IMG/VR virus record: IMGVR_UViG_2734482778_000005
Span: 1-10,057 of that record
Reading direction: 5' to 3' (one strand)
Origin: a virus
Lineage: Duplodnaviria > Heunggongvirae > Uroviricota > Caudoviricetes
Length of the DNA: 10,057 nt
A program made the position numbers and the translations under genes. Below the pieces are notes generated by a model. The model did not search any database. It was not told the DNA's origin and worked only from the letters and a program-made list of their open reading frames with translations. This document shows positions 1-9,908 of the stretch, piece by piece (within the stretch, counting starts at the first letter, position 1; every line of letters begins with the position of its first letter).

Positions 1-105
1 CCAGAAAATGTTGTCCGGCGTGCGCCACTGATCGCCCACTTCCTTCAGTTCATGGGCTGGTTTGTTCCGCAGTTCCACCAGCGCCTGGCAATATTTATTA
101 CTCAT
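1..105 (-). CDS. N-terminal 35 codons of a gene that continues beyond the window start; possible phage Dam-type DNA N6-adenine methyltransferase
   Basis: Minus-strand ATG at 105-103 overlaps the TAA stop of the upstream gene (TAATG). Reads MSNKYCQALVELRNKPAHELKEVGDQWRTPDNIFW with no stop to the window edge. Codon usage is host-like (CTG, GCG, CCG). The D-x-W-R-T-P motif near the N-terminus resembles phage Dam-family methyltransferases; this is recalled, not searched. Confidence 0.4.
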   Translation of the reverse strand, partial: MSNKYCQALVELRNKPAHELKEVGDQWRTPDNIFW

Positions 106-599
106 TAAGCCCCCACGTAATTCCCTGACAGATACCACTCATCACCCGATACAGCGCGCTTGCTGCTTTTCCGTAAACACTGCTCACGACGCGCCAGAAA
201 ATTGTTTCGTTCTGGCTGGGAGTGGCTTTCACGGAATGCCGCCATCCACACCGTTGCAGCACGACGGTATAAGCCCCTGGACTCCAGTTCTTCCGCCTGG
301 CGGGTCAGGCACAAAATCACCCGGGGATCGTTAGTGCCGACATAGAAATTGCGCACAGGTCTGGTTTCACGAACTGGTTGTGGTTCCGGCTCCTGCGCTC
401 TCTCAGTCAGGCGTGGGAAATGTCTGCGTGTATCTCCTTCACAACGGTGAGCCACACGCCCACTCTGACGTAACTTGCTTGCTGACTGCAGAACGCGCTG
501 CCGTGAGTAACCTGCAAAAGCATCCGCAATGTCTCCGGAAGTACACCCCGGATGGGCTTCAATGAATTTCTGAACGTCATTTAACAGACTCATGATCAC
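105..599 (-). CDS. Hypothetical prophage protein, 164 aa, with a C-terminal PerC-like motif (LESRGLYRRAATVW); possibly YfdN-like
   Basis: Complete ORF on the minus strand. Its ATG at 599-597 overlaps the stop of the O-like gene (ATGA). The C-terminal half carries a motif recalled from the PerC/Pch regulator family. The length equals what I recall for K-12 YfdN, but that is not verified. Confidence 0.65.
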   Translation of the reverse strand: MIMSLLNDVQKFIEAHPGCTSGDIADAFAGYSRQRVLQSASKLRQSGRVAHRCEGDTRRHFPRLTERAQEPEPQPVRETRPVRNFYVGTNDPRVILCLTRQAEELESRGLYRRAATVWMAAFRESHSQPERNNFLARREQCLRKSSKRAVSGDEWYLSGNYVGA

Positions 600-1588
600 C
601 CCCTGAATCCTGCCGGGATCTGGCTGTAGTCCACGTTGTCGTAACTGGCTTTGAAGTACGGGTCTTCACGTTTTTCTGTGTGCGTGCTGACGGACGGCGA
701 TAAGCGCAGGGAAAGCTCATCCCATTTTTCCCGCAACTTCGACGGGCTGAGCACGTTACGGCACCAGAACGGATCGCGGCTGACGCGGCTGTACATCTCG
801 CAGATTTGTTTGTGAGTACGACCATCCTGCACACACATCAGGCGAATTTCGTTTGCCCATGCTGTCCAGTTCGGTTCTTTGGGACGAACCACCTCGCCGT
901 CACATTCGGCGGCCTGCTCGTACAGGGCGATGATTTTTTTCCAGAGCCACTGTGCGCAGGTCAAATCATCCTGCGTTCCCCACTGGCGCTTTTTAGGGCT
1001 GAATACAACCGCATCAGGATGGCGAGTTAAAAACTCCTGTTCAGCCGTTTGCGTGTCCGGTTGCGAAGCGTCCGGACGAGAAGAGGTTTTATTCTCTGTA
1101 GTAATCTCTGTTGTATTCTCTGTAAGATCATTGGGCCATTTTGACCCGATGACAGCGTGTCGTTTTGAACCAATGGATCGTGTCATTTTGCGCCCATCCA
1201 TCAGGTCACTTTGACCCGATGGAGAAGTGCATTTTGACCCGATGGATTCGTTCACTTTGACCTCTTCTAAAAGCTCACTTTCATAGTTGATCGTGTAGAA
1301 GTTGGTCATGTCACGCTTCGATTTATTGAGTTGCTCGCGACGCAAAACCCCAAGTGATTTCAGGCTTGCAAATGTGCGTTTCAGAGTGGACTCTGACCAG
1401 AACGGAAACTGCTCCAGCCACTGTTCTGTCGTGTTATAAACCCAGCGAATTCCGCCATGCTCAGTGCCTGAATTCGTTTCATTCAGCCAGTAATGAAGCT
1501 GCTGCAACACAATTGCCTCATTCAGACCAATACGGCATGCAAGATCACGATTTATCACAATGGGCTGGGATGTCATTAACAGGCTCAT
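596..1588 (-). CDS. Lambdoid replication initiator (O-like), 330 aa, with the replication origin embedded in its coding sequence
   Basis: ATG at 1588 is preceded by GAGGT with a 5-nt spacer. The direct repeats at 1139-1264 fall in the middle of the ORF and encode the repeated SIGSK peptide, as iterons do in lambda O. Downstream gene is coupled by an ATGA overlap. Confidence 0.85.
   Translation of the reverse strand: MSLLMTSQPIVINRDLACRIGLNEAIVLQQLHYWLNETNSGTEHGGIRWVYNTTEQWLEQFPFWSESTLKRTFASLKSLGVLRREQLNKSKRDMTNFYTINYESELLEEVKVNESIGSKCTSPSGQSDLMDGRKMTRSIGSKRHAVIGSKWPNDLTENTTEITTENKTSSRPDASQPDTQTAEQEFLTRHPDAVVFSPKKRQWGTQDDLTCAQWLWKKIIALYEQAAECDGEVVRPKEPNWTAWANEIRLMCVQDGRTHKQICEMYSRVSRDPFWCRNVLSPSKLREKWDELSLRLSPSVSTHTEKREDPYFKASYDNVDYSQIPAGFRG
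1081..1264. repeat. Putative phage origin: six direct iterons at about 23-bp spacing (core TTTTGACCCGATGGA, starting near 1139, 1163, 1186, 1209, 1232, 1255) next to an AT-rich tract (1081-1138) carrying short TTCTCTGT repeats
   Basis: Direct reading of the sequence: four near-identical and two degenerate copies of the TTTTGACC core, phased at 23-24 bp, abutting an AT-rich stretch. This is the classic iteron plus AT-rich lambdoid ori-within-O layout. Confidence 0.65.
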
Positions 1589-1757
1589 GACCGACCTCTA
1601 TTTCCCTGAATTTACGACGAAACTGTTCGAGCGGACTGAAGCATTCATGTTCATAGCCTTCACGGAGGTAGATAACCCGTTGTGTTTCCGGCTCCCAACG
1701 AATGACTCTGACGGGCACTCCGTAGTGATCTTTGAACCAGCGGTTAACTTGTCGCAA
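1545..1757 (-). CDS. Alternative small ORF (70 aa, TTG start); mutually exclusive with most of 1598-1936
   Basis: TTG start is preceded by AAGGAGA with a 7-nt spacer. The product ([40 protein letters not shown]...) has a globular-looking composition. It overlaps the O-like start by 44 nt and overlaps the 112-aa ORF in another frame. Confidence 0.3.
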
Positions 1758-1936
1758 AGGACTGTCTCCTTCTGCCGGTTGAAATCACCCACAGCCCACT
1801 CTGCAAAGCTGTGGGTTACAATTTCCCTGTCACCTGGTACATTCACTGCATAGCAATACTCCACCTTCGCTTTTCCACCCGGTACAGGAAGCGCAATCAG
1901 TTGCGAGCGACGGTAGTGTGTTGTTAAACTGTTCAT
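1598..1936 (-). CDS. Hypothetical protein, 112 aa, between the CII-like and O-like genes
   Basis: ATG at 1936 overlaps the stop of the upstream CII-like gene (ATGA). GGAGA lies 9 nt upstream. The TAG stop at 1600-1598 sits 9 nt before the O-like ATG, inside its ribosome-binding site, which is typical operon spacing. The C-terminal half is S/T/N-rich and less protein-like. Confidence 0.45.
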
Positions 1937-2517
1937 GCGTTAGTTTCTCCACAACCAGAAGCAATCGACGCCACGACGCCCGGAGCTGCACACTCGCGGG
2001 CGTTACTCTTTTCCGGCGCACAAAAAACACGAAATAACAGTGTTAAATGCTCCTGCCACTTCGCCATTACTTGGTAGCTGTTCTCTTCGATTTGCTCACG
2101 CTCAGCCTGGTCAATAACTCCATCAGCAGTTGCCTTGCGTAAGTACTGGGAATGCTTGCCAATCCATTCTATTGACTCCATCAGCCGCTGATTAATGTCA
2201 CCATTGTCAATGTCATCAATGACCACCAGCGGCACAAACACCCCATTACTACGACGGGCTATTGCATCTGTTACATGCCTGGTACCACTGGCATCCTGTA
2301 AAACCATGGCCCACTCAAGTGGAAAAATTTGATCCCCACCGCTACGCAGTCTGTTATGCAATTGATCTTTTGCTGGGGTGATATCATCAGATTTATACAA
2401 ACCAAGAATTTCTGCTGCTTCCTCATAGCCATGAGGTAAATCAGCAATCGTTCTTCGTATTGCTGCCACCAGCCATGCTGGTTGTTTATCAACTTTCCAT
2501 TCAGGTTCTTTACCCAC
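1933..2517 (-). CDS. Phage CII-like regulatory protein (CP76/YdaT-type), 194 aa, GTG start
   Basis: GTG at 2517-2515 is preceded by GAGGA with a 7-nt spacer. It sits immediately downstream of the Cro-like gene (27-nt gap), in the cII position. The central region ([10 protein letters not shown]...[25 protein letters not shown]) resembles CII/CP76-type regulators from memory. Confidence 0.7.
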
Positions 2518-2544
2518 GGTTAATTCCTCATTTCTGTGGTGTTT

Positions 2545-2742
2545 TTATGCCGCAGCACTGTTAGTCTTTTGATATAAAGACACGTCAACTTTCAGTTTCC
2601 CGTTAGTAATTTTTTCTAACTGGTACGCTCGGCCTTCAGGAATAATCTCAGGCCACTCTGAAACAGACGGATGCTTAATACCTAGGGCTTCGGCGGTTTT
2701 ACAAACTCCGCCGAAATAATTAATCACGTCGGATTTCCGCAT
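2545..2742 (-). CDS. Cro-like small HTH regulator (YdaS/Cro family), 65 aa
   Basis: ATG at 2742 is preceded by GGGAGA with a 5-nt spacer. It is the first gene leftward of the operator cluster and divergent from the cI-like gene. The HTH-like segment is GGVCKTAEALGIKHPSVSEW. Confidence 0.8.
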   Translation of the reverse strand: MRKSDVINYFGGVCKTAEALGIKHPSVSEWPEIIPEGRAYQLEKITNGKLKVDVSLYQKTNSAAA

Positions 2743-2773
2743 TTCTGTCTCCCGTTAAATTACGTTAAGCAGA

Positions 2774-2840
2774 AATGTAGGATATCCAACATGCCAATGT
2801 CAAGAATCCTACATGGGCATGTGGTAGGATTGCCTACATG
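2774..2840. promoter_or_regulatory. OR-like operator region: three 18-bp imperfect palindromes (2775-2792, 2797-2814, 2822-2839) overlapping a leftward PR-like promoter (-35 TTGACA at 2803-2798, -10 TACATT at 2779-2774, minus strand) and the cI start
   Basis: Direct reading. The sites are ATGTAGGATATCCAACAT, ATGTCAAGAATCCTACAT and TGGTAGGATTGCCTACAT, sharing the half-site ATGT(A/T)GGAT. The promoter is TTGACA, 18-nt spacer, TACATT, aimed at the cro-like gene. Confidence 0.6.
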
Positions 2841-3491
2841 ATGAACATGAGTGATCGTATTCGCCAAAGGCGAAAAGAACTGAACCTGACACAACAAGCA
2901 CTGGCTGATTTGACTGGTGTGAACCGTGTCACGGTTACTGGATGGGAAAAGGACGACTACCAACCAAATGGAGCCAACCTTCAAGCCCTAGCCAACGCAC
3001 TTAAATGCGATCCTCTGTGGCTTGTTAGCGGAAAAGGCTCGCCTGAACCAAAGATAAATCTAAAACCTGAAATATTCGCAGTTAAAAAAGTCCCCCTCAT
3101 CTCGTGGGTTCAGGCGGGTTCATGGACAATGACGGAGCCTGGTGTCAGGAAAGAAGATGCTGAAGAGTGGGTTTATACTACCGCCCTTGTATCAGAAATG
3201 GCATTTGCACTACGGGTCCGTGGTGATTCAATGACCAATCCCCTCGGCTCACCATCGATACCAGAAGGTTCTATCGTTATCGTAGAGCCAGATATTATTG
3301 ATACAGAGTGTATTAACGGAAAAATCGTTGTTGCCCATATCAATGGTGGGCAAGAAGCGACACTCAAAAAATTTGTTGAGGACTGGCCGAACAGGTATCT
3401 CGTCCCACTAAATCCTAACTATAAAACTATTGAATGCGGTGAGAACTGCAGAATAGTTGGTCTTGTCAAACAAGTAATAATGGATTTTTGA
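2838..3491 (+). CDS. cI: cI-like prophage repressor: N-terminal XRE-type HTH plus C-terminal S24 (LexA-like) autopeptidase domain, 217 aa
   Basis: HTH segment LTQQALADLTGVNRVTVTGWE. A candidate Ala-Gly cleavage site (VQAGSW). The catalytic Ser sits in the GDSM context and a Lys in ATLKKF. The start overlaps the third operator; alternative ATGs lie at 2841 and 2847. Confidence 0.9.
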   Translation: MMNMSDRIRQRRKELNLTQQALADLTGVNRVTVTGWEKDDYQPNGANLQALANALKCDPLWLVSGKGSPEPKINLKPEIFAVKKVPLISWVQAGSWTMTEPGVRKEDAEEWVYTTALVSEMAFALRVRGDSMTNPLGSPSIPEGSIVIVEPDIIDTECINGKIVVAHINGGQEATLKKFVEDWPNRYLVPLNPNYKTIECGENCRIVGLVKQVIMDF

Positions 3492-3511
3492 CACATCTTC
3501 CTCACTATCGC

Positions 3512-3537
3512 AAAACCGGGGTATCCCCGGTTTTTTT
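3512..3537 (+). terminator. Rho-independent terminator after cI (stem AAAACCGGGG / CCCCGGTTTT, 3-nt loop, T7 tail)
   Basis: Perfect 10-bp GC-rich inverted repeat followed by TTTTTTT, 21 nt after the cI stop. The A-tract upstream makes it potentially bidirectional. Confidence 0.7.
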
Positions 3538-3553
3538 ATGAGCCTATCTTTTT

Positions 3554-3607
3554 ATGTAGGATAACCAACATAAACTCTTGACACTCACATGTTGGATATC
3601 CTACATT
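3554..3607 (+). promoter_or_regulatory. OL/PL-like region: two 18-bp operators (3554-3571, 3589-3606) bracketing a rightward promoter (-35 TTGACA at 3578-3583, -10 TACATT at 3602-3607)
   Basis: The operators ATGTAGGATAACCAACAT and ATGTTGGATATCCTACAT share the OR half-site. The promoter has the same TTGACA, 18-nt spacer, TACATT geometry as PR. Confidence 0.6.
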
Positions 3608-3765
3608 TGTTTTTAGAGTTGTGGTGAATGCGCAGGCTGATGCGCGAAAGACATTGCAGCTATTGCGGAAAAGAGCTGTTCGGCGGGGCAATTAAACGCC
3701 CGTGAGAGTCTGAAATAACCGCAAGCCGGAGATCAGCACCGGTCACCACAACAGCCACTGCTTTG

Positions 3766-3813
3766 GCGGTACCAGTTTGTACACTTGCTTCCGGCTGGTA
3801 CCGCTCTTTTTAC
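3766..3813 (+). other. Strong hairpin in the PL leader (10-bp perfect stem GCGGTACCAG / CTGGTACCGC, 19-nt loop, then TCTTTTT); possible attenuator or terminator
   Basis: Perfect inverted repeat read directly, followed by a T-rich run, about 135 nt upstream of the first early-left gene. Function is not established. Confidence 0.3.
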
Positions 3814-3948
3814 AAAACAGAGAAGAGCATCACCGGACGACGGGCTCATAACCCAATCCATCCGGGCGGCTGCCACCGCAGGTGTTCTTCTCTGTTTTGT
3901 GGAGAAACTAACCGACCTTGCAGGGTCGATATGATGAGGAGCAGCAAA

Positions 3949-4311
3949 ATGGCTAGCGAACGCAGTACTGATGTGCAGGCATTTATTGGGGAGCTGGACG
4001 GCGGCGTATTTGAAACCAAAATCGGCGCAGTTCTCAGTGAAGTCGCTTCCGGTGTGATGAACACGAAAACCAAAGGTAAGGTCTCGCTCAACCTGGAAAT
4101 CGAACCGTTTGATGAGAATCGTGTGAAAATCAAACACAAACTCTCGTATGTTCGCCCGACTAACCGCGGGAAAATTTCCGAAGAAGACACCACCGAAACG
4201 CCGATGTATGTCAATCGCGGTGGTCGCCTGACTATTCTGCAGGAAGACCAGGGACAATTACTGACTCTTGCTGGTGAACCTGACGGAAAACTCCGCGCAG
4301 CAGGTCATTAA
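3949..4311 (+). CDS. yfdP: YfdP-like prophage protein, 120 aa
   Basis: ATG at 3949 is preceded by GAGGAG with a 7-nt spacer. The ORF-track start at 3763 is a TTG with an implausible N-terminal extension. Length and position directly upstream of the YfdQ/YfdR-like genes match the CPS-53 yfdP-yfdQ-yfdR order as I recall it. Confidence 0.65.
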   Translation: MASERSTDVQAFIGELDGGVFETKIGAVLSEVASGVMNTKTKGKVSLNLEIEPFDENRVKIKHKLSYVRPTNRGKISEEDTTETPMYVNRGGRLTILQEDQGQLLTLAGEPDGKLRAAGH

Positions 4312-4376
4312 TATCGTTCTTAATTAACTGATTATTTATCTCATCACTGAATATCTTTATATAGTGAGGACTTATT

Positions 4377-5201
4377 ATGTCTCAGAACTTAGACGCAACC
4401 GCAATTAATCAAATCCATGCCCTTATTTCTGCTCAGGGTGTTAATGAAATTATCAGTAAGATTGGTGCCGATGCTGTGGCATTGCCTGAGAATTTCCGCA
4501 TTCATGATCTGGAAAAATTTAATTTAAATCGCTTCCGTTTCCGTGGTGCGCTTTCCACTGCCAGCATCGATGACTTTACCCGTTATTCTAAAGATCTTGC
4601 AGATGAAGGCACCCGCTGCTTTATCGATGCTGATAATATGCGTGCCGTCAGTGTGCTTAACCTGGGTACTATTGATGAACCAGGTCACGCAGATAACACC
4701 GCCACTCTCAAACTGAAAAAGACAGCACCGTTCTCTGCTCTGTTGTCTGTTAATGGCGAGCGTAACTCCCAGAAATCACTGGCAGAATGGATTGAAGACT
4801 GGGCCGACTACCTTGTGGGCTTTGATACTAATGGTGACACCATTCAGGCAACAAAAGCGGCTGCGGCGGTCCGTAAAATCACGATTGAAGCAAACCAGAC
4901 CGCTGATTTTGAGGATAATGACTTCAGCGGCAAACGCTCCCTGATGGAGTCTGTCGAAGCGAAGACCAAAGACATTATGCCAGTGGCATTTGAATTTAAA
5001 TGCGTTCCGTTTGAAGGCCTTAAAGAACGTCCGTTTAAATTACGCCTCAGCATTATCACTGGCGATCGTCCTGTACTGGTTCTGCGCATTATTCAGCTGG
5101 AAGCGGTGCAGGAAGAAATGGCTAACGAATTTCGTGATCTGCTTGTTGAGAAATTCAAAGACAGCAAAGTAGAAACCTTTATTGGTACTTTCACCGCCTG
5201 A
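4377..5201 (+). CDS. yfdQ: YfdQ-like protein (DUF2303 family), 274 aa
   Basis: ATG is preceded by GAGGA with a 6-nt spacer. It is a long clean ORF with host-like codon usage. The sequence and length match my recollection of CPS-53 YfdQ. Confidence 0.8.
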
Positions 5202-5213
5202 TTTCATTACTGC

Positions 5214-5235
5214 AAATGCCCCTGCGGGGGCATTT
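5214..5235 (+). terminator. Terminator-like hairpin after yfdQ (AAATGCCCC, loop TGCG, GGGGCATTT) with a weak U-tail
   Basis: Perfect 9-bp inverted repeat 13 nt after the yfdQ stop. Only three T residues follow, so it is probably a partial terminator or an RNA-stability element. Confidence 0.3.
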
Positions 5236-5329
5236 ATGGAAACGTAATTAACTCAATAATCGCCGGATGGTGAGGGCTTCCTTTTACCCGAATTCAGCGC
5301 GGTGCAGCGCATATAACGTGGAGAACAAA

Positions 5330-5866
5330 ATGTCATTTATTAAAACTTTTTCCGGGAAGCATTTTTATTATGACAGGATAAATAAAGACAACATCGATAT
5401 TAACGATATCGCGGTTTCCCTTTCAAATATCTGTCGCTTTGCCGGTCATCTTTCACACTTCTACAGCGTCGCCCAACATGCGGTGCTTTGCAGCCAGCTG
5501 GTGCCGCAGGAATTTGCTTTTGAAGCGTTAATGCATGATGCAACAGAAGCGTATTGCCAGGACATCCCCGCGCCACTGAAACGCCTTCTTCCTGACTATA
5601 AACGGATGGAAGAAAAAATAGACGCCGTAATCCGTGAGAAATACGGGTTACCCCCGGTTATGAGTACGCCCGTGAAATATGCCGATCTCATCATGCTGGC
5701 AACCGAACGCCGTGATCTCGGGCTTGATGATGGCTCTTTCTGGCCTGTACTGGAAGGCATCCCGGCAACAGAGATGTTCAACGTGATTCCACTGGCACCG
5801 GGCCATGCCTACGGGATGTTTATGGAACGCTTCAACGAGTTATCGGAATTACGCAAATGTGCATAA
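5330..5866 (+). CDS. yfdR: YfdR-like HD-domain phosphohydrolase (5'-deoxynucleotidase-type), 178 aa
   Basis: ATG at 5330 is preceded by GGAG. HD motif (ALMHDATEA) and upstream His residues are present. Length and sequence match my recollection of K-12 YfdR. The ORF-track start at 5267 is an upstream in-frame extension. Confidence 0.8.
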   Translation: MSFIKTFSGKHFYYDRINKDNIDINDIAVSLSNICRFAGHLSHFYSVAQHAVLCSQLVPQEFAFEALMHDATEAYCQDIPAPLKRLLPDYKRMEEKIDAVIREKYGLPPVMSTPVKYADLIMLATERRDLGLDDGSFWPVLEGIPATEMFNVIPLAPGHAYGMFMERFNELSELRKCA

Positions 5867-6735
5867 CTCATGTAGTTAGTTTTTCTGGCGGGAGAACATC
5901 TGCATATCTTGTTCACCTGATGGAAGAACAAAGAAAGGCTGGCAATAACGTCTGCTACATCTTTATGGATACCGGTTGCGAACATCCGCTGACATACCGC
6001 TTTATTCGGGAGGTTGTGAAGTTCTGGGGCATACCGCTAACTGTGTTGCAGGTCGATATAAATCCAGAGCTTGGGCAGCCAAATGGTTATACGGAATGGG
6101 AACCAAAGGATATTCAGACACGAATGCCGGTGCTTAAACCGTTTATGGACATGGTAAAAAAATATGGCACGCCATACATCGGCGGCGCATTCTGCACTGA
6201 CAGATTAAAACTCACCCCCTTCACAAAATACTGCGATGACCATTTCGGACGAGGGAATTACATCACATGGCTGGGTATTCGTGCAGACGAACCTCGTAGG
6301 CTGAAACCGAAATCGGGCGTCCGGTATCTTGCCGAGCTATCTGATTTTGATAAGTCGGATGTTATCCGGTGGTGGCATAAACAACCTTTTGATTTGCAAA
6401 TCCCGGAGCACCTCGGGAACTGTGTTTTCTGCATCAAAAAGTCCACGCAAAAGCTGGGGCTTGCATGTAAAGACGAACCTGGTCTGATGCGAGTTTTTAA
6501 TGAGCTGGTTACAGGTAAACACGTCCGGGATGGTCACCGAAAGACAAATAAAGACGTTATGTACCGTGGTCATCTGAGCCTTGACGGGATTGCCAGAATG
6601 TATGCCGACAGCGACTACAGAAATTTGTATCAGGCGATGGTGCAAGCCAGGCGATTCGATACCGGCTCGTGTTCAGGGTCATGTGAAATCTGGGGTGATC
6701 AATTGGAGTTGAAATTCGAAGAGGTGGTGGCATGA
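5857..6735 (+). CDS. PAPS-reductase-like PP-loop ATP-pyrophosphatase family protein, 292 aa
   Basis: N-terminal PP-loop SFSGGRTS (SGGxxS type). The start overlaps the yfdR stop by 10 nt and the stop overlaps the next start (ATGA). It is a long ORF with several Cys residues near the C-terminus. Confidence 0.8.
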   Translation: MCITHVVSFSGGRTSAYLVHLMEEQRKAGNNVCYIFMDTGCEHPLTYRFIREVVKFWGIPLTVLQVDINPELGQPNGYTEWEPKDIQTRMPVLKPFMDMVKKYGTPYIGGAFCTDRLKLTPFTKYCDDHFGRGNYITWLGIRADEPRRLKPKSGVRYLAELSDFDKSDVIRWWHKQPFDLQIPEHLGNCVFCIKKSTQKLGLACKDEPGLMRVFNELVTGKHVRDGHRKTNKDVMYRGHLSLDGIARMYADSDYRNLYQAMVQARRFDTGSCSGSCEIWGDQLELKFEEVVA

Positions 6736-7205
6736 CAACCAAAATTAACTATCAGGCACTGCGTGAGGCGGCAGAAGCAATAAAAATAGTAGCCACACCA
6801 CAAAAATTGCTGGCATTTCGTATGAAAGTCACACCGCAGGTTGTGCTGGCGCTGCTGGATGAGCTGGAAGCAGCAGAGAAGCGAAACGCTGAATTACAAA
6901 GCGAGAATGCATACATCCGCAACCGGTACAAAGAACTGGACCTATTAATCGGGAAAAACATTCTGGTCATGCAGGCTGCCATTATCGAATGGCAGGCAAC
7001 TGGCGACGCTAAGAGCGGACTGGCATGGATTTATAACACACTGTTTGGCCCTGGCGAATTACCGGACGAATCTGAGAAAGATGCTCAGGCCTACTTTAAT
7101 CGCAAATATGCACCGATTGACGAAAAGCTTATGGCGCTTCACAAGTGGTTTTGGGAACAAAGTGAAGCCGAGCGCGCCGCTGGCATTCGCATCAAAGGAG
7201 AGTGA
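6732..7205 (+). CDS. Ea22-like (ead/Ea22 family) phage early protein, 157 aa
   Basis: ATGA overlap with the upstream gene; GAGGTG ribosome-binding site. The N-terminal YQALREAAEA and coiled-coil-like central region resemble Ea22-family prophage proteins from memory. Confidence 0.6.
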   Translation: MTTKINYQALREAAEAIKIVATPQKLLAFRMKVTPQVVLALLDELEAAEKRNAELQSENAYIRNRYKELDLLIGKNILVMQAAIIEWQATGDAKSGLAWIYNTLFGPGELPDESEKDAQAYFNRKYAPIDEKLMALHKWFWEQSEAERAAGIRIKGE

Positions 7206-7206
7206 T

Positions 7207-7470
7207 ATGGCAACTTTGACAAAAAAGGAACAGGCATGGTTGAGCGAATTACAGAACGTTCTTGATCGCTGCCCGTCACCGAAAAAAATTGGTTTTTACA
7301 CCATTGGCGATAAAAACATTTACCTGTATGACCTACGCCGCATGGATGAAATCATGGAGGCTCTTGATAATCGTTCGTCAATGGATTGGTGTGTTGCTGT
7401 CCATGATATGAATGCCGGATTTGAAGAAAAGATTTTGTTCCCCTCGTCAGTTGAAAGCACAGCGGGTTAA
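7207..7470 (+). CDS. Hypothetical phage protein, 87 aa
   Basis: ATG at 7207 is preceded by AGGAG with an 8-nt spacer and starts 1 nt after the upstream TGA. The ORF-track start at 7045 is an in-frame extension overlapping the upstream gene. Confidence 0.6.
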   Translation: MATLTKKEQAWLSELQNVLDRCPSPKKIGFYTIGDKNIYLYDLRRMDEIMEALDNRSSMDWCVAVHDMNAGFEEKILFPSSVESTAG

Positions 7471-7480
7471 GGACTAACAC

Positions 7481-7945
7481 ATGACAACGTTCACCGACAA
7501 AGAACTGATTAAAGAAATCAAAGAGCGCATAGGCAGCCTGCCAGAATTAATCGAAGGCATGGAAGTTTCCATTGATGTAAGCACTTGTGATGCTGATTTA
7601 GGTAATCGCTATTTCGGCACCGTCACCGAGGCGTTAGAACTTGATACAGCCAAGAATGGTTACATCCTCCTGGTTCAGGACGCAGAGCCAAACTTCGATG
7701 TAAATGGCAACTCTCCGGGAACTCCGGATAGTTGGATAAGCTGTAGTGATCGAATGCCTGAAAAGGGCCAGAACGTGCTTATTTCGGTGAATTTCGATAG
7801 CTCTCTGGTTGAACCGCTAATATGCTCCGCACGCTATACCGGAAGCACCTTTCGGCGCGGAGATGCAACGATTAAGCCGGGTAATGGTATTGAGCAAGCA
7901 ACTCACTGGATGCCGCTACCGGAACCGCCGCAGGAGGTGAAGTGA
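7481..7945 (+). CDS. DUF551-family phage protein, 154 aa
   Basis: AAGGA with a 7-nt spacer. The C-terminal segment (WISCSDRMPEKGQNVLI ... HWMPLPEPP) matches the DUF551 pattern as I recall it. Confidence 0.7.
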   Translation: MTTFTDKELIKEIKERIGSLPELIEGMEVSIDVSTCDADLGNRYFGTVTEALELDTAKNGYILLVQDAEPNFDVNGNSPGTPDSWISCSDRMPEKGQNVLISVNFDSSLVEPLICSARYTGSTFRRGDATIKPGNGIEQATHWMPLPEPPQEVK

Positions 7946-8517
7946 TGAACAACTTAATGATCGACCTTGAGACGATGGGGAAAAATAAGGATGCACCGAT
8001 CGTTTCCATTGGCGCGGTGTTCTTCACTCCAGAAACCGGAGACATCGGACAAGAATTCTATACGGTTGTTAGCCTGGAAAGTGCTATGGGGCAAGGAGCT
8101 ACACCTGACGGCGATACCATCCTGTGGTGGTTGAAACAAAGCCCTGAAGCACGAGCTGCAATCTGTATTGATGATACTTTGTCGATCAGCGATGCTCTCT
8201 CAGAACTAAATCATTTCATTAACCGGCACGCAGCCAATACGAAATATTTAAAAGTCTGGGGTAACGGGGCCACCTTCGACAACGTAATTTTACGTGGAGC
8301 TTATGAGCGAGCAGGACAAATCTGCCCGTGGGCATACTGGAATGACCACGATGTACGCACGATCGTTACGCTTGGGCGTTCCATCGGATTCGACCCCAAA
8401 ATGGACATCCCTTTCGATGGCGAACGGCACAACGCCCTAGCCGATGCCCGTCATCAGGCAAAATATGTTTCCGCTATCTGGCAGAAATTAATTCCTGCCA
8501 CCAGCACAGAATTATGA
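7945..8517 (+). CDS. DEDD-type (DnaQ-like) 3'-5' exonuclease, 190 aa
   Basis: Exo I motif IDLETMG, Exo II region WGNGATFDNVIL and Exo III HNALADARH are in the expected order. ATG at 7945 has AGGAGG with a 7-nt spacer; the GTG at 7942 in the ORF track is too close to that site. It overlaps the upstream stop (TGATG). Confidence 0.8.
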   Translation: MNNLMIDLETMGKNKDAPIVSIGAVFFTPETGDIGQEFYTVVSLESAMGQGATPDGDTILWWLKQSPEARAAICIDDTLSISDALSELNHFINRHAANTKYLKVWGNGATFDNVILRGAYERAGQICPWAYWNDHDVRTIVTLGRSIGFDPKMDIPFDGERHNALADARHQAKYVSAIWQKLIPATSTEL

Positions 8518-8553
8518 TTTTCCCGGGTGCAGCCGGTTTTGATGGAGAAAATT

Positions 8554-8826
8554 ATGAATACCTTGTTTTTACTGATGGCTGAATTCAATACCCCTAACAT
8601 TGAACTCTCAGCAGTTAGCCAAAAGTACTTTGGCATGAGTCCAGCCACGGCAGAAGCAAAAGCAAACGCTTGTAAGTTGCCCGTTCCAACATATCGCATC
8701 GGCACATCACAAAAAGCAAAACGTTGCATCAATATTCAGGATCTTGCGGAATACATAGACAAAAGGCGAGAAGAAGGGCGTGCTGAGTGGGAAAGGGTCA
8801 GAACCCATAAACAAAGGCTCATTTAA
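8554..8826 (+). CDS. PrtN-family / excisionase-like small DNA-binding protein, 90 aa
   Basis: ATG at 8554 is preceded by GGAGA. The product (MNTLFLLMAEFNTPNIELSAVSQKYFGMSPATAEAKANACKLPVPTYR...) resembles PrtN/Xis-like proteins from memory. It is the last gene of the rightward operon. Confidence 0.6.
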   Translation: MNTLFLLMAEFNTPNIELSAVSQKYFGMSPATAEAKANACKLPVPTYRIGTSQKAKRCINIQDLAEYIDKRREEGRAEWERVRTHKQRLI

Positions 8827-8834
8827 ATAGAATA

Positions 8835-8866
8835 TGAATAAACCCATCCAAAGATGGGTTTATTCA
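8835..8866. terminator. Perfect 14-bp inverted repeat (TGAATAAACCCATC, loop CAAA, GATGGGTTTATTCA) between convergent genes; candidate bidirectional terminator
   Basis: Read directly. The right arm contains the stop codon of the minus-strand gene. A T-rich run follows on the minus-strand transcript, so it probably works better for the leftward cassette. Confidence 0.5.
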
Positions 8867-9321
8867 TAATGTTGAAGAGCAGCGAGTATCAGTTTTTTAT
8901 GCCGTTTAACCATAGTTTTAGATATCTCAACTGCACATCGAACTTGTCTCATACAATGATCTGTAATGCGACCTTTTAGCACGTCACCATATTGGATGGC
9001 TATTTTCTCTTTAATAATTTCAAGATCGAAAGCAGCATGAGCCTCAATGCAATTAACAAATGAGTCCCATTTAAGAAAATCATGGTCCTCTCTATTAATT
9101 TCGACCTGACAAGCCATAAGATCATTGTTTCTCTTAATAAATTCATTTATATCTGAATTTATTAGAAGAACTAAAAGAGGTTCACAGCAAACAACCACCA
9201 TATATTTTACTTTAGGTGGGGTCGTAAAATCACAATGAAGATACAATACATCACCGGGTGATATACCTCTTTCACGACTAAAATTAGCCTTAAAATCAGG
9301 AGGGAAACAATCACCCAGCAT
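8860..9321 (-). CDS. Hypothetical protein, 153 aa, no family recognised; candidate toxin or effector partner of the upstream Panacea-domain gene
   Basis: ATG at 9321-9319 lies 5 nt after the TGA of the Panacea-domain gene. The ORF track extends to a TTG at 9330, which would give an ATGA-type overlap. AT-rich codon usage differs from the rest of the window. No known motif identified by eye. Confidence 0.65.
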   Translation of the reverse strand: MLGDCFPPDFKANFSRERGISPGDVLYLHCDFTTPPKVKYMVVVCCEPLLVLLINSDINEFIKRNNDLMACQVEINREDHDFLKWDSFVNCIEAHAAFDLEIIKEKIAIQYGDVLKGRITDHCMRQVRCAVEISKTMVKRHKKLILAALQHYE

Positions 9322-9326
9322 AAGTA

Positions 9327-9908
9327 TCAATATCCGTTCTTCAGATAATCCAGTATTAATTTGCTATTTTTTAGCTGTGCAACTATCGATTCCAAAGACA
9401 TCTCACCATTGTGATCTGCCTGTTCCCATGCCGCGTCATGGCTCATGGTTCTGATAGCTTCAAAGGACATGTTTCCAAGCATCGCGATAGACTTATCAAT
9501 ACACTCTAAATCTGAGTCACTAAAAAAGTCTTCATCAGCTTCACGGCTCGGCACAATCGTCATACCTGATACAGAAAATGCTTTTCGCACAGAATCGACA
9601 TCACAACCATTAGGAATGTAACGTCCATCTCCACGAGCAATTTTTATAATATCGTATGTGTTGCTTGCTACAGGCCCATCCTTCATAGCGTTATAGTGAT
9701 CGCCCGTTATGAGGCGTCCAAAACTTTCAAGGTGAAACCTGTCAGCATAATAAAGAATTTTTCCGACATGATAGATATCTGGGATCGGTGCTTTAGAGGC
9801 GACGTACAGAATGGCCTCTAAAGCCTTTTCTGAATCAAACCTTACATTTAGCATCAATACACCCTTCATCCAAACAACATCGTCAAGCTCTGGCAAATGC
9901 AACCGCAT
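9327..9908 (-). CDS. Panacea (DUF4065) domain protein, SocA/GepA-like, 193 aa (possibly 175 aa from an internal ATG at 9854)
   Basis: N-terminal region (EAILYVASKAP-IPDIYHVGKILYYADRFHLESFGRLITGDHYNAMKDGPV) matches the Panacea/COG3600 signature (KLxKLLYYA ... GPV). The C-terminal part (LSDSDLECIDKSIAMLGNMSFEAIRTMSHDAAWEQA) matches the second conserved block. No ribosome-binding site precedes the ATG at 9908; AAGGG precedes the ATG at 9854. Confidence 0.7.
   Translation of the reverse strand: MRLHLPELDDVVWMKGVLMLNVRFDSEKALEAILYVASKAPIPDIYHVGKILYYADRFHLESFGRLITGDHYNAMKDGPVASNTYDIIKIARGDGRYIPNGCDVDSVRKAFSVSGMTIVPSREADEDFFSDSDLECIDKSIAMLGNMSFEAIRTMSHDAAWEQADHNGEMSLESIVAQLKNSKLILDYLKNGY

Follow-up and report, generated by a model that had tools for sequence, protein, structure and literature searches.

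The window, the whole stretch of DNA analysed here (10,057 nucleotides from a virus of the Caudoviricetes, IMG/VR record IMGVR_UViG_2734482778_000005), carries three genes and one hairpin between positions 3949 and 5866.

3949-4311, plus strand: yfdP, 120 aa, 99% identical to K-12 YfdP, phrog_204 (function unknown)
4377-5201, plus strand: yfdQ, 274 aa, 99% identical to K-12 YfdQ, DUF2303
5214-5235, plus strand: GC-rich hairpin between yfdQ and yfdR (AAATGCCCC-TGCG-GGGGCATTT), read from the sequence, without a long T run after it
5330-5866, plus strand: yfdR, 178 aa, HD-domain 5'-deoxynucleotidase family, 98% identical to K-12 YfdR, phrog_318 (9e-110)

Protein alignment with the K-12 MG1655 counterparts gave 119 of 120 identical residues for YfdP, 270 of 274 for YfdQ and 174 of 178 for YfdR; all three genes were full-length, with no frameshift relative to K-12. 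Window 3930-5864 and NC_000913 2473585-2475518 formed a single blastn block of 1935 bp (97.5% identity), in which synteny and gene order were kept. The original prediction had placed an intact yfdP-yfdQ-yfdR-like cluster at 3949-5866 and had named alignment to the K-12 proteins as its check; identity was high, not low, and the cluster is intact. Gene identity and order were thus observed directly, and near-identical prophages carry the RefSeq labels yfdP, YfdQ family, and yfdR 5'-deoxynucleotidase. Each gene is preceded by a Shine-Dalgarno sequence (GAGGAG at 3936-3941 for yfdP, GAGG about 9 nt before 4377 for yfdQ, and GGAG about 9 nt before 5330 for yfdR). The yfdR start was assigned to 5330 because of this GGAG and conservation; the ATG at 5267, which opens a longer reading frame, was disfavoured and is probably not the true start, and its extension is not conserved in relatives.

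Homologues of yfdP have a precomputed Pfam assignment (PF27127), and the AF2 model of YfdP consists of one helix and three long strands, for which the fold search gave no informative match. YfdQ matched Pfam DUF2303 (PF10065, E=3.7e-92) across its full length. It also matched PDB 9o7m, entitled "YfdQ Protein" (E=1.7e-44); this homologue was deposited as an entry of 36 chains, which suggests a large oligomer, and no mention of the code was found in the literature. The fold searches with YfdQ, in libraries without the 9o7m entry, gave no informative match.

The following features lie upstream of the cluster.

1933-2517: cII-like gene
2545-2742: cro, with a P22_Cro domain
2838-3491, plus strand: cI-type repressor (Pfam Peptidase_S24, 3.7e-25, the S24 LexA-like autocleavage domain; HTH_3, 1.1e-15)
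3516-3537, plus strand: intrinsic terminator after cI, CCGGGG-TAT-CCCCGG followed by seven T residues, read directly from the sequence
3555-3607, plus strand: PL region (operators 3555-3570 and 3590-3605; -35 TTGACA, 3578-3583; -10 TACATT, 3602-3607)

The cI, cro and cII-like genes make up a complete CI/Cro immunity region, and the repressor and the prophage H1 "LexA family protein" are 100% identical. PL (TTGACA-18 nt-TACATT, 3578-3607) scored 10/12 in the promoter scan, and the same hexamer pair precedes cro on the minus strand (PR, 2803-2774). The two promoters are mirror images within a 40-nt inverted repeat (2766-2805 and 3576-3615, 85%). The 16-nt operator TGTWGGATAWCCWACA occurs at 2776, 2823, 3555 and 3590 (8 pattern matches at 4 sites, compared with 0.45 expected by chance). 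The CI gene therefore lies between outward-facing promoters with shared operators, the arrangement of a lambdoid PL operon; this promoter and operator architecture is again a direct observation. Both the complete-looking immunity region with a PL-like promoter and the position of yfdP, yfdQ and yfdR as the first genes of the early-left operon, as originally predicted, were borne out. No N-type open reading frame was found between 3607 and 3949, and LLS is likewise reported to be without N (PMC12315714).

The interval between PL and yfdP is a structured leader of 335 nt with the following parts.

3618-3753, plus strand: leader part 1, a structured segment of 136 nt from the predicted transcript start, closing stem GUUGUGGUG/CACCACAAC
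3765-3811, plus strand: intrinsic-terminator-like hairpin, GGCGGTACCAG...CTGGTACCGC and then TCTTTTT
3807-3905, plus strand: Y-shaped hairpin, conserved, with a basal stem of about 25 bp and two inner hairpins
3913-3941, plus strand: small hairpin (3913-3928) and the yfdP Shine-Dalgarno sequence

Leader part 1 had no Rfam match; it is also present at 98.5% identity in unrelated phages (RCS47, the P1-like JL22, and IME207). The terminator-like hairpin was overlooked by the built-in scan because its loop is 19 nt. In eight phages the stem sequence at this position is entirely different, yet all retain a GC-rich hairpin with C(C)TTTTT(T)ACA after it. The Y-shaped hairpin (fold z-score, -5.1) has its core in at least 119 viral contigs, and RNAalifold with 25 distinct sequences gave 32 pairs, of which seven had compensatory changes; this covariation was seen directly in the alignment. 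The hairpin is conserved far more strongly than the Yfd proteins downstream, with 84-90% DNA identity in ST64B, phiNP and LLS, compared with just 56-68% for the Yfd proteins of these phages. Relatives also carry an equivalent of the hairpin at 3913-3928 with a different sequence. Two other readings were considered for parts of the leader. A coding function (open reading frames 3763-4311 and 3785-3934) was rejected because the insertions in relatives are not multiples of three and the variation preserves base pairing. A boxA (nutL) reading of CGCTCTTT at 3803-3810 was rejected because the motif, which is the tail of the terminator, is not conserved in relatives. A search of the whole window against Rfam at E<=1 gave a single hit (E=0.55) to an unrelated family and no put-type match. 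The conserved leader RNA is a new point and a side observation of this analysis. It also qualifies the view that the cluster sits directly under PL, which is correct for position, but a structured leader with a terminator-like hairpin intervenes. Expression immediately on induction, which had been expected, is not assured, because this conserved hairpin lies between PL and yfdP.

Downstream of yfdR, homology to K-12 stops at 5864, at the gene boundary, and two features are relevant.

5857-6735, plus strand: PP-loop gene (PAPS-reductase/SspD/DndC-like; Pfam PAPS_reduct, 4.3e-09; PADLOC SspD, 1.5e-15)
7481-7945, plus strand: chimeric DUF551 protein, 154 aa (DUF551, 5.9e-22), with a YfdT-like N-terminus

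The PP-loop gene occupies the place of K-12 yfdS; that it is a diverged or longer yfdS was rejected (BLASTP against YfdS, E=3.1). No orthologue of yfdS or yfdT was found in the window, where tblastn gave no match to YfdS and only 20 aa of YfdT. Residues 1-20 of the DUF551 protein are 90% identical to YfdT, and K-12 YfdS is a DUF551 protein as well. The window protein shares phrog_924 and phrog_7704 with YfdS, and phrog_5117 and phrog_60 with YfdT; direct BLASTP against YfdS was insignificant. As judged from these matches, it is the sole candidate stand-in for YfdS or YfdT and is not an orthologue. A Panacea-domain toxin-antitoxin-like pair was also observed at 8860-9908.

More than half of complete E. 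coli genomes contain the yfdP-yfdQ-yfdR arrangement, as do SfV, SfIV, mEp460, cdtI, ST64B and LLS; it was described in 2025 for these lambda-like phages (PMC12315714). The order cI, gap, yfdP-yfdQ-yfdR was found in LLS, ST64B, phiNP, mEp460, cdtI, Stx2a_WGPS2 and SfIV. Phages of this type have a single O-like replication gene and many Chi sites, and they lack a helicase loader, a recombination module and an N homologue. Of 55 contigs, 50 had this O-only replication module, as did four named phages. yfdP and yfdQ occurred together in all 48 contigs (48/48), and yfdR in 55 of the 57 contigs with the leader. In several contigs the leader is followed by an RdgC-family gene exactly in the place of yfdP-yfdQ and then by yfdR; two distinct kinds of RdgC gene (Pfam RdgC, 1.5e-115 and 2e-33) make this replacement. 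The exchange of yfdP-yfdQ for RdgC genes and the link to loader-less O-only modules are further new side observations.

The original prediction had referred to published replication inhibition on overexpression of the CPS-53 cluster, with YfdR binding DnaA. The study in question exists (Noguchi and Katayama 2016, PMC4776307). Purified K-12 YfdR, a 5'-deoxynucleotidase of the HD-domain type with weak substrate affinity, bound domain I of DnaA in a Phe46-dependent manner and competed moderately with DiaA and DnaB (PMC4776307). YfdR and YfdQ together with one of YfdS and YfdT, at multicopy, lowered initiation at oriC; yfdP was dispensable, and a plasmid with yfdQR only gave no suppression, so that the minimal inhibitory set is yfdQ, yfdR, and yfdS or yfdT (PMC4776307). 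Inhibition was confined to multicopy conditions and could, by the authors' own account, be an artefact of overexpression; the K-12 deletion had no replication phenotype, and deletion of yfdQ gave weak sensitivity to MMS and H2O2 (the latter as cited in PMC4776307).

With these data, the explanation that we favour, tentatively and at a little short of an even chance, is that the window carries the intact phage-borne form of the CPS-53 yfdP-yfdQ-yfdR genes, a conserved accessory module with which the leftward early operon begins, and that YfdR acts on host DNA and nucleotide metabolism. In the lysogen, CI would close PL through two operators. On induction, RNA polymerase would start near 3614, traverse the leader, have to read through the intrinsic terminator at 3765-3811, and then transcribe the Y-shaped hairpin, yfdP, yfdQ and yfdR. 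YfdR may then act on host DNA and nucleotide metabolism by dampening oriC initiation, by which DnaB would be freed for the loader-less phage, by dephosphorylating dNMPs, or by both, and YfdP and YfdQ would work as an inseparable pair. Several points stand against this explanation. yfdQ and yfdR are present and intact in the window, but the published inhibitory set also needs YfdS or YfdT, for which the window has no orthologue and which were found in only 24 of the 48 natural contigs with yfdQ and yfdR. Other points against it are the missing deletion phenotype and the acknowledged possibility of an artefact (PMC4776307), the presence of YfdR relatives in phages whose hosts have divergent DnaA, and the fold searches, which returned no function for YfdP or YfdQ. 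The host-takeover role that had been proposed is thus partly retained: the identity, intactness and operon position of the genes were as predicted, but the missing yfdS and yfdT, the multicopy-only effect, the leader terminator and the wide host range of YfdR weaken it. That the genes of the window serve to block host DNA replication is plausible but unproven.

It is possible, if somewhat unlikely, that YfdR works mainly on the nucleotide pool, as a dNMP phosphatase by which deoxynucleotides are removed or rebalanced early in infection, and that its binding to DnaA is incidental. Early disposal or rebalancing of deoxynucleotides is the role traditionally ascribed to the pre-early 5'-deoxyribonucleotidase of phage T5. 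YfdR aligned with Agrobacterium Atu1052 (PDB 2gz4, E=1e-13), including the metal-binding residues of the QH, HD and AD motifs, and the H...HD...D motif was kept in all relatives examined. It belongs to a separate phage clade (phrog_318), labelled deoxyribonucleoside 5' monophosphate phosphatase in PHROG, and the RefSeq name also points to a phosphatase of this kind. Homologues were found in 333 phage records, some of them from virulent or jumbo phages, with hosts such as Bacillus, Caulobacter, Pseudomonas and Vibrio; because they reach such distant hosts, a conserved enzymatic core role fits better than specific binding of E. coli DnaA. Further, yfdR is retained where yfdP and yfdQ are lost or replaced, and the artefact caution comes from the DnaA paper itself (PMC4776307). 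Against this, purified YfdR did bind DnaA through a specific residue (PMC4776307), and the Pfam YfbR-like score was below threshold (24.0 bits, gathering cut-off 25.9). The NCBIfam YfbR equivalog PRK03826 scored 19.9, with a cut-off of 122.

We regard as improbable a second alternative, that YfdP and YfdQ, as a counterpart of RdgC, together bind DNA or modulate recombination and so tune host RecA and RecBCD for Chi-reliant phages without a recombination module. The RdgC genes found between the leader and yfdR, the constant pairing of yfdP with yfdQ, the four Chi sites of the window (all on the minus strand, 0.24 expected), the weak MMS and H2O2 sensitivity of the yfdQ deletion (cited in PMC4776307) and the possible large oligomer of the YfdQ homologue are all consistent with it. 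A bolder version of the replication role, which we consider distinctly improbable, is that YfdR, helped by YfdQ, supplies the helicase-capture or host-shut-off function that O-only lambdoid phages otherwise lack. YfdR would occupy DnaA domain I at the contact for DnaB and DiaA and release DnaB-DnaC from oriC to the phage origin, and a cis-regulatory leader not described before (the covarying terminator and the Y-shaped hairpin) would gate its expression. Temperate-phage early-left operons are known to gather genes of the anti-defence and superinfection type, and placement in such an operon, next to the SspD/DndC-like gene and with the Panacea-domain pair nearby, would suit an anti-defence or superinfection accessory set without a replication role, but PADLOC gave no match for YfdP, YfdQ or YfdR, no literature link was found, and this is very unlikely.

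Returning to the favoured explanation, an intact early-left module with YfdR acting on host DNA and nucleotide metabolism, the genes, their K-12 identity, the early-left position and the DnaA story are already known from databases and two papers. The useful result is the context, namely what CPS-53 lost (immunity region, PL and leader), together with the incompleteness of the published inhibitory gene set in the window. If the side observations hold, they would give a testable account of how loader-less lambdoid phages get DnaB, the acquisition of which has been called not yet understood (PMC12315714), and a new conserved leader RNA for phages without the N antiterminator.

Among known systems, K-12 CPS-53 (KpLE1) agrees in the genes themselves, with 98-99% identity and equal order and spacing for yfdP-yfdQ-yfdR and with yfdO, yfdN and yfdM homologues at window 1-1092. 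It differs in being without window 1093-3929, which holds cII, cro, cI, PL and the complete leader as well as the N-terminal part of the O-like gene, and in having yfdS and yfdT after yfdR, in the place of which the window has the PP-loop gene, Ead/Ea22, phrog_1714 and the DUF551 chimera. K-12 CPS-53 is a deletion derivative, and since K-12 is without 1093-3929, the window shows the ancestral context. LLS (gp39-37), ST64B (sb37-35), phiNP, SfV/SfIV, mEp460 and cdtI share cI, the long non-coding gap and yfdP-yfdQ-yfdR, with an exonuclease and an excisionase farther downstream, O-only replication, and no N homologue. They differ in immunity specificity and downstream cargo, and in LLS and ST64B also in the more distant Yfd proteins. 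Like the HK022 put antiterminator RNA, and like the hairpin of the lambda N leader, the leader is a structured RNA that separates PL from the first gene, in a phage without N; a put-like mechanism has been suggested for LLS (PMC12315714). However, put is about 73 nt in two stem-loops, compared with 100-130 nt for the Y-shaped hairpin, which in the window is downstream of the terminator, not upstream, and comparison of the leader with the putL-containing PL-nun interval of HK022 gave nothing beyond random 8-11-mers. YfdR has the HD fold and the metal-binding residues of the HD-domain 5'-deoxynucleotidases (E. coli YfbR and Atu1052), but scores below the YfbR family and has a low reported substrate affinity. 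In the analogy drawn by the DnaA study (PMC4776307), lambda P and B. subtilis SirA, the latter acting on domain I, likewise bind the host initiator DnaA and keep the chromosomal origin from initiating. Lambda P, however, is a helicase loader and acts on DnaA domain III, whereas YfdR is an HD-domain hydrolase that acts on domain I and inhibits only moderately and with the help of partner proteins.

The 10-kb window comprises the immunity and early regions of a lambda-like prophage, in which the yfdP-yfdQ-yfdR cluster (yfdPQR) opens the leftward operon.

Features of the window (the minus-strand genes listed belong to the rightward operon)
Window end past the PerC-like gene, minus: methyltransferase gene, start only
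105-599, minus: PerC-like gene
596-1588, minus: O-like replication gene (phrog_391, E=8e-102)
1545-1757, minus: DUF4222 gene
1933-2517, minus: cII-like gene
2545-2742, minus: cro (Pfam P22_Cro)
2838-3491, plus: cI (HTH and S24)
3516-3537: terminator directly after cI
3949-4311, plus: yfdP
4377-5201, plus: yfdQ
5330-5866, plus: yfdR
5857-6735, plus: PP-loop gene
6732-7205, plus: Ead/Ea22
7207-7470, plus: phrog_1714
7481-7945, plus: DUF551 gene
7942-8517, plus: 3'-5' exonuclease gene
8527-8826, plus: excisionase-like gene

Past the cI terminator, the predicted leftward promoter PL has the hexamers TTGACA-18 nt-TACATT at 3578-3607, which mirror the same pair in front of cro, within a 40-nt inverted repeat of 85% complementarity. 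A 16-nt quasi-palindromic operator occurs in four copies (2776, 2823, 3555 and 3590; 0.45 expected by chance), and each -10 hexamer (PL and the cro promoter) is overlain by one of them. The CI/Cro switch is thus complete and PL credible; the paired hexamers, the repeat and the four shared operators bear out the PL-like promoter within a complete immunity region. Four Chi sites (GCTGGTGG; 0.24 expected) were all on the minus strand (75-82, 2223-2230, 2466-2473 and 8498-8505), which fits the Chi-rich lambdoid class without a recombination module, as described for phage LLS. At the prophage end, a Panacea (SocA-like antitoxin) domain gene and an overlapping gene for a 156-aa protein, which had no family match (8860-9330 and 9327-9908, minus strand), look like a candidate toxin-antitoxin pair; in H1, a prophage near-identical to the window, this end adjoins zur, and no integrase is annotated there.

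Alignment with K-12 gave full-length identities of 99% for YfdP, 99% for YfdQ and 98% for YfdR (ORFs 3949-4311, 4377-5201 and 5330-5866), so that low identity was not seen; at the DNA level, 97.5% was obtained over 3930-5864. Window 1-1092 likewise matched the K-12 yfdM-yfdN-yfdO segment at 97.3%, and K-12 lacks 1093-3929, a stretch that runs from the O-like gene (of which the 5' two-thirds are lost) through DUF4222, cII, cro and cI to PL and the leader between PL and yfdP. Because the flanks match at 97.3-97.5% and the middle is absent, K-12 CPS-53 derives by deletion from a phage of this kind, and it was right to describe the window's cluster as intact. The cluster is found very widely: matches to parts of 3400-6800 occur in 3206 of the 5426 complete E. 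coli genomes and in 125 phage records. The observation of yfdPQR is correct, far beyond chance. Note that the 128-nt yfdQ-yfdR gap contains a 9-bp GC-rich hairpin (5214-5235) with no long T run, a possible attenuator or RNA-stability element.

Compared with shuffled sequence, the 335-nt leader shows far more structure (z = -4.7). Its first part (3618-3753, 136 nt, structured) begins at the predicted PL transcript start. Unrelated phages have it at 98.5% identity as intergenic DNA: the P1-like RCS47 and JL22, where it lies beside tRNA-Asn and tRNA-Thr, and IME207 (Salmonella/Klebsiella); its first ~35 nt are also found in many Klebsiella phages. The second part is a hairpin (3765-3805) with TCTTTTT after it. 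Across eight phages none of the stem sequence is retained, but each has a GC-rich hairpin and then C(C)TTTTT(T)ACA at this position, the pattern expected at 3765-3811 of a functional intrinsic terminator. Directly downstream of this covarying stem lies the third part, a Y-shaped hairpin (3807-3905), and just past it a small hairpin (3913-3928). The Y-shaped hairpin has 84-90% DNA identity in ST64B, phiNP and LLS, where the downstream proteins are only 56-68% identical; RNAalifold on 25 distinct versions gave 32 pairs, 7 of them with compensatory double changes, and at least 119 viral contigs contain the core. No Rfam family matched any part of the leader, which also showed no resemblance to the putL interval of HK022. 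The original prediction placed yfdPQR as the first genes after PL, expressed immediately on induction. The placement holds by position, but the leader with its conserved terminator intervenes; immediate expression is an assumption that cannot be read from the sequence, since transcription must cross this terminator before yfdPQR. The leader RNA is one of three parts that might repay further work.

The work cited for replication inhibition exists (Noguchi and Katayama 2016, PMC4776307) and reports YfdR-DnaA binding. In its K-12 deletion analysis, yfdP was dispensable for inhibition and yfdQ and yfdR were both needed; yfdQR alone was inactive unless yfdS or yfdT was added. Purified YfdR bound DnaA in a Phe46-dependent manner and competed moderately with DiaA and DnaB; gene deletion gave no phenotype, and the authors concede a possible artefact of overexpression. 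This set is incomplete in the window, where K-12 homology ends at 5864, the boundary of yfdR and the next gene. The place of yfdS is taken by a PAPS-reductase/SspD/DndC-like PP-loop gene (5857-6735) unrelated to YfdS. Its product matched PADLOC SspD (1.5e-15) and, weakly, DndC and BrxP, and may be a DNA-modification enzyme in the early-left operon. The nearest candidate substitute for YfdS/YfdT is the 154-aa protein of 7481-7945. Its DUF551 domain scores strongly (that of K-12 YfdS weakly), it matches YfdT at 90% over its first 20 residues and it shares PHROG families with both; BLASTP against YfdS was insignificant. YfdS or YfdT was present in 24 of the 48 non-redundant viral contigs that have yfdQ and yfdR and extend far enough downstream (28 when the DUF551 chimera was counted), and these partners are therefore frequent, not obligatory.

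Of 57 non-redundant contigs that carry the core of the leader, 55 have yfdR; yfdP and yfdQ occurred together in 48 of 48 cases. Five relatives have yfdR directly after the leader, so YfdR is independent of YfdP/YfdQ. In eight others an RdgC-family gene, of two divergent kinds, replaces yfdP-yfdQ as the first gene, with yfdR next where present; a few have an excisionase and integrase there. YfdP and YfdQ behave as a single unit, and the gene that can take their position encodes an RdgC-family protein, a DNA-binding modulator of recombination; this exchange might also repay further work. AlphaFold models of YfdQ (pLDDT 77) and YfdP (pLDDT 75) gave no informative match against PDB. A homologue of YfdQ (E=1.7e-44 against the window protein) has been deposited as PDB 9o7m, for which no publication was found; its 36 chains imply a large homo-oligomer. 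YfdR homologues turned up in 333 records of phages that infect, among others, Bacillus, Caulobacter, Rhizobium, Vibrio and Pseudomonas; this wide range and the conserved HD residues argue for an enzymatic core role of the family. The proposed host-takeover role was a reasonable hypothesis from the literature, but it is only partly supported, because the YfdS/YfdT orthologues are missing, the phenotype is a multicopy effect, a terminator guards the genes and the YfdR family is widely spread.

The replication module is a single O-like gene (596-1588, minus) with the PerC-like gene (105-599) directly next, and it encodes neither a helicase nor a helicase loader. Of 55 related viral contigs that extend 6.5 kb or more upstream of the leader, 50 have an O-like gene immediately followed by a PerC-like or methyltransferase gene, and no ORF of at least 150 aa with a Walker A motif was found within 8 kb. 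The presence of a DnaA-domain-I binder that competes with DnaB in phages with no loader of their own is suggestive, and the association is worth testing and might repay further work; since these contigs are interrelated and were gathered via a single sequence pattern, though, it could be due to linkage alone. The same layout occurs in mEp460, cdtI, Stx2a_WGPS2 and SfIV; a 2025 paper on lambdoid phages (PMC12315714) assigns just 34 of 314 to the loader-less type, whose replication it describes as "not yet understood". That paper names LLS, ST64B, phiNP and ArgO145, and describes LLS as lacking an N homologue and having only an O-like replication gene. It covers the yfdPQR arrangement, so the finding, as first stated, was already in the literature.
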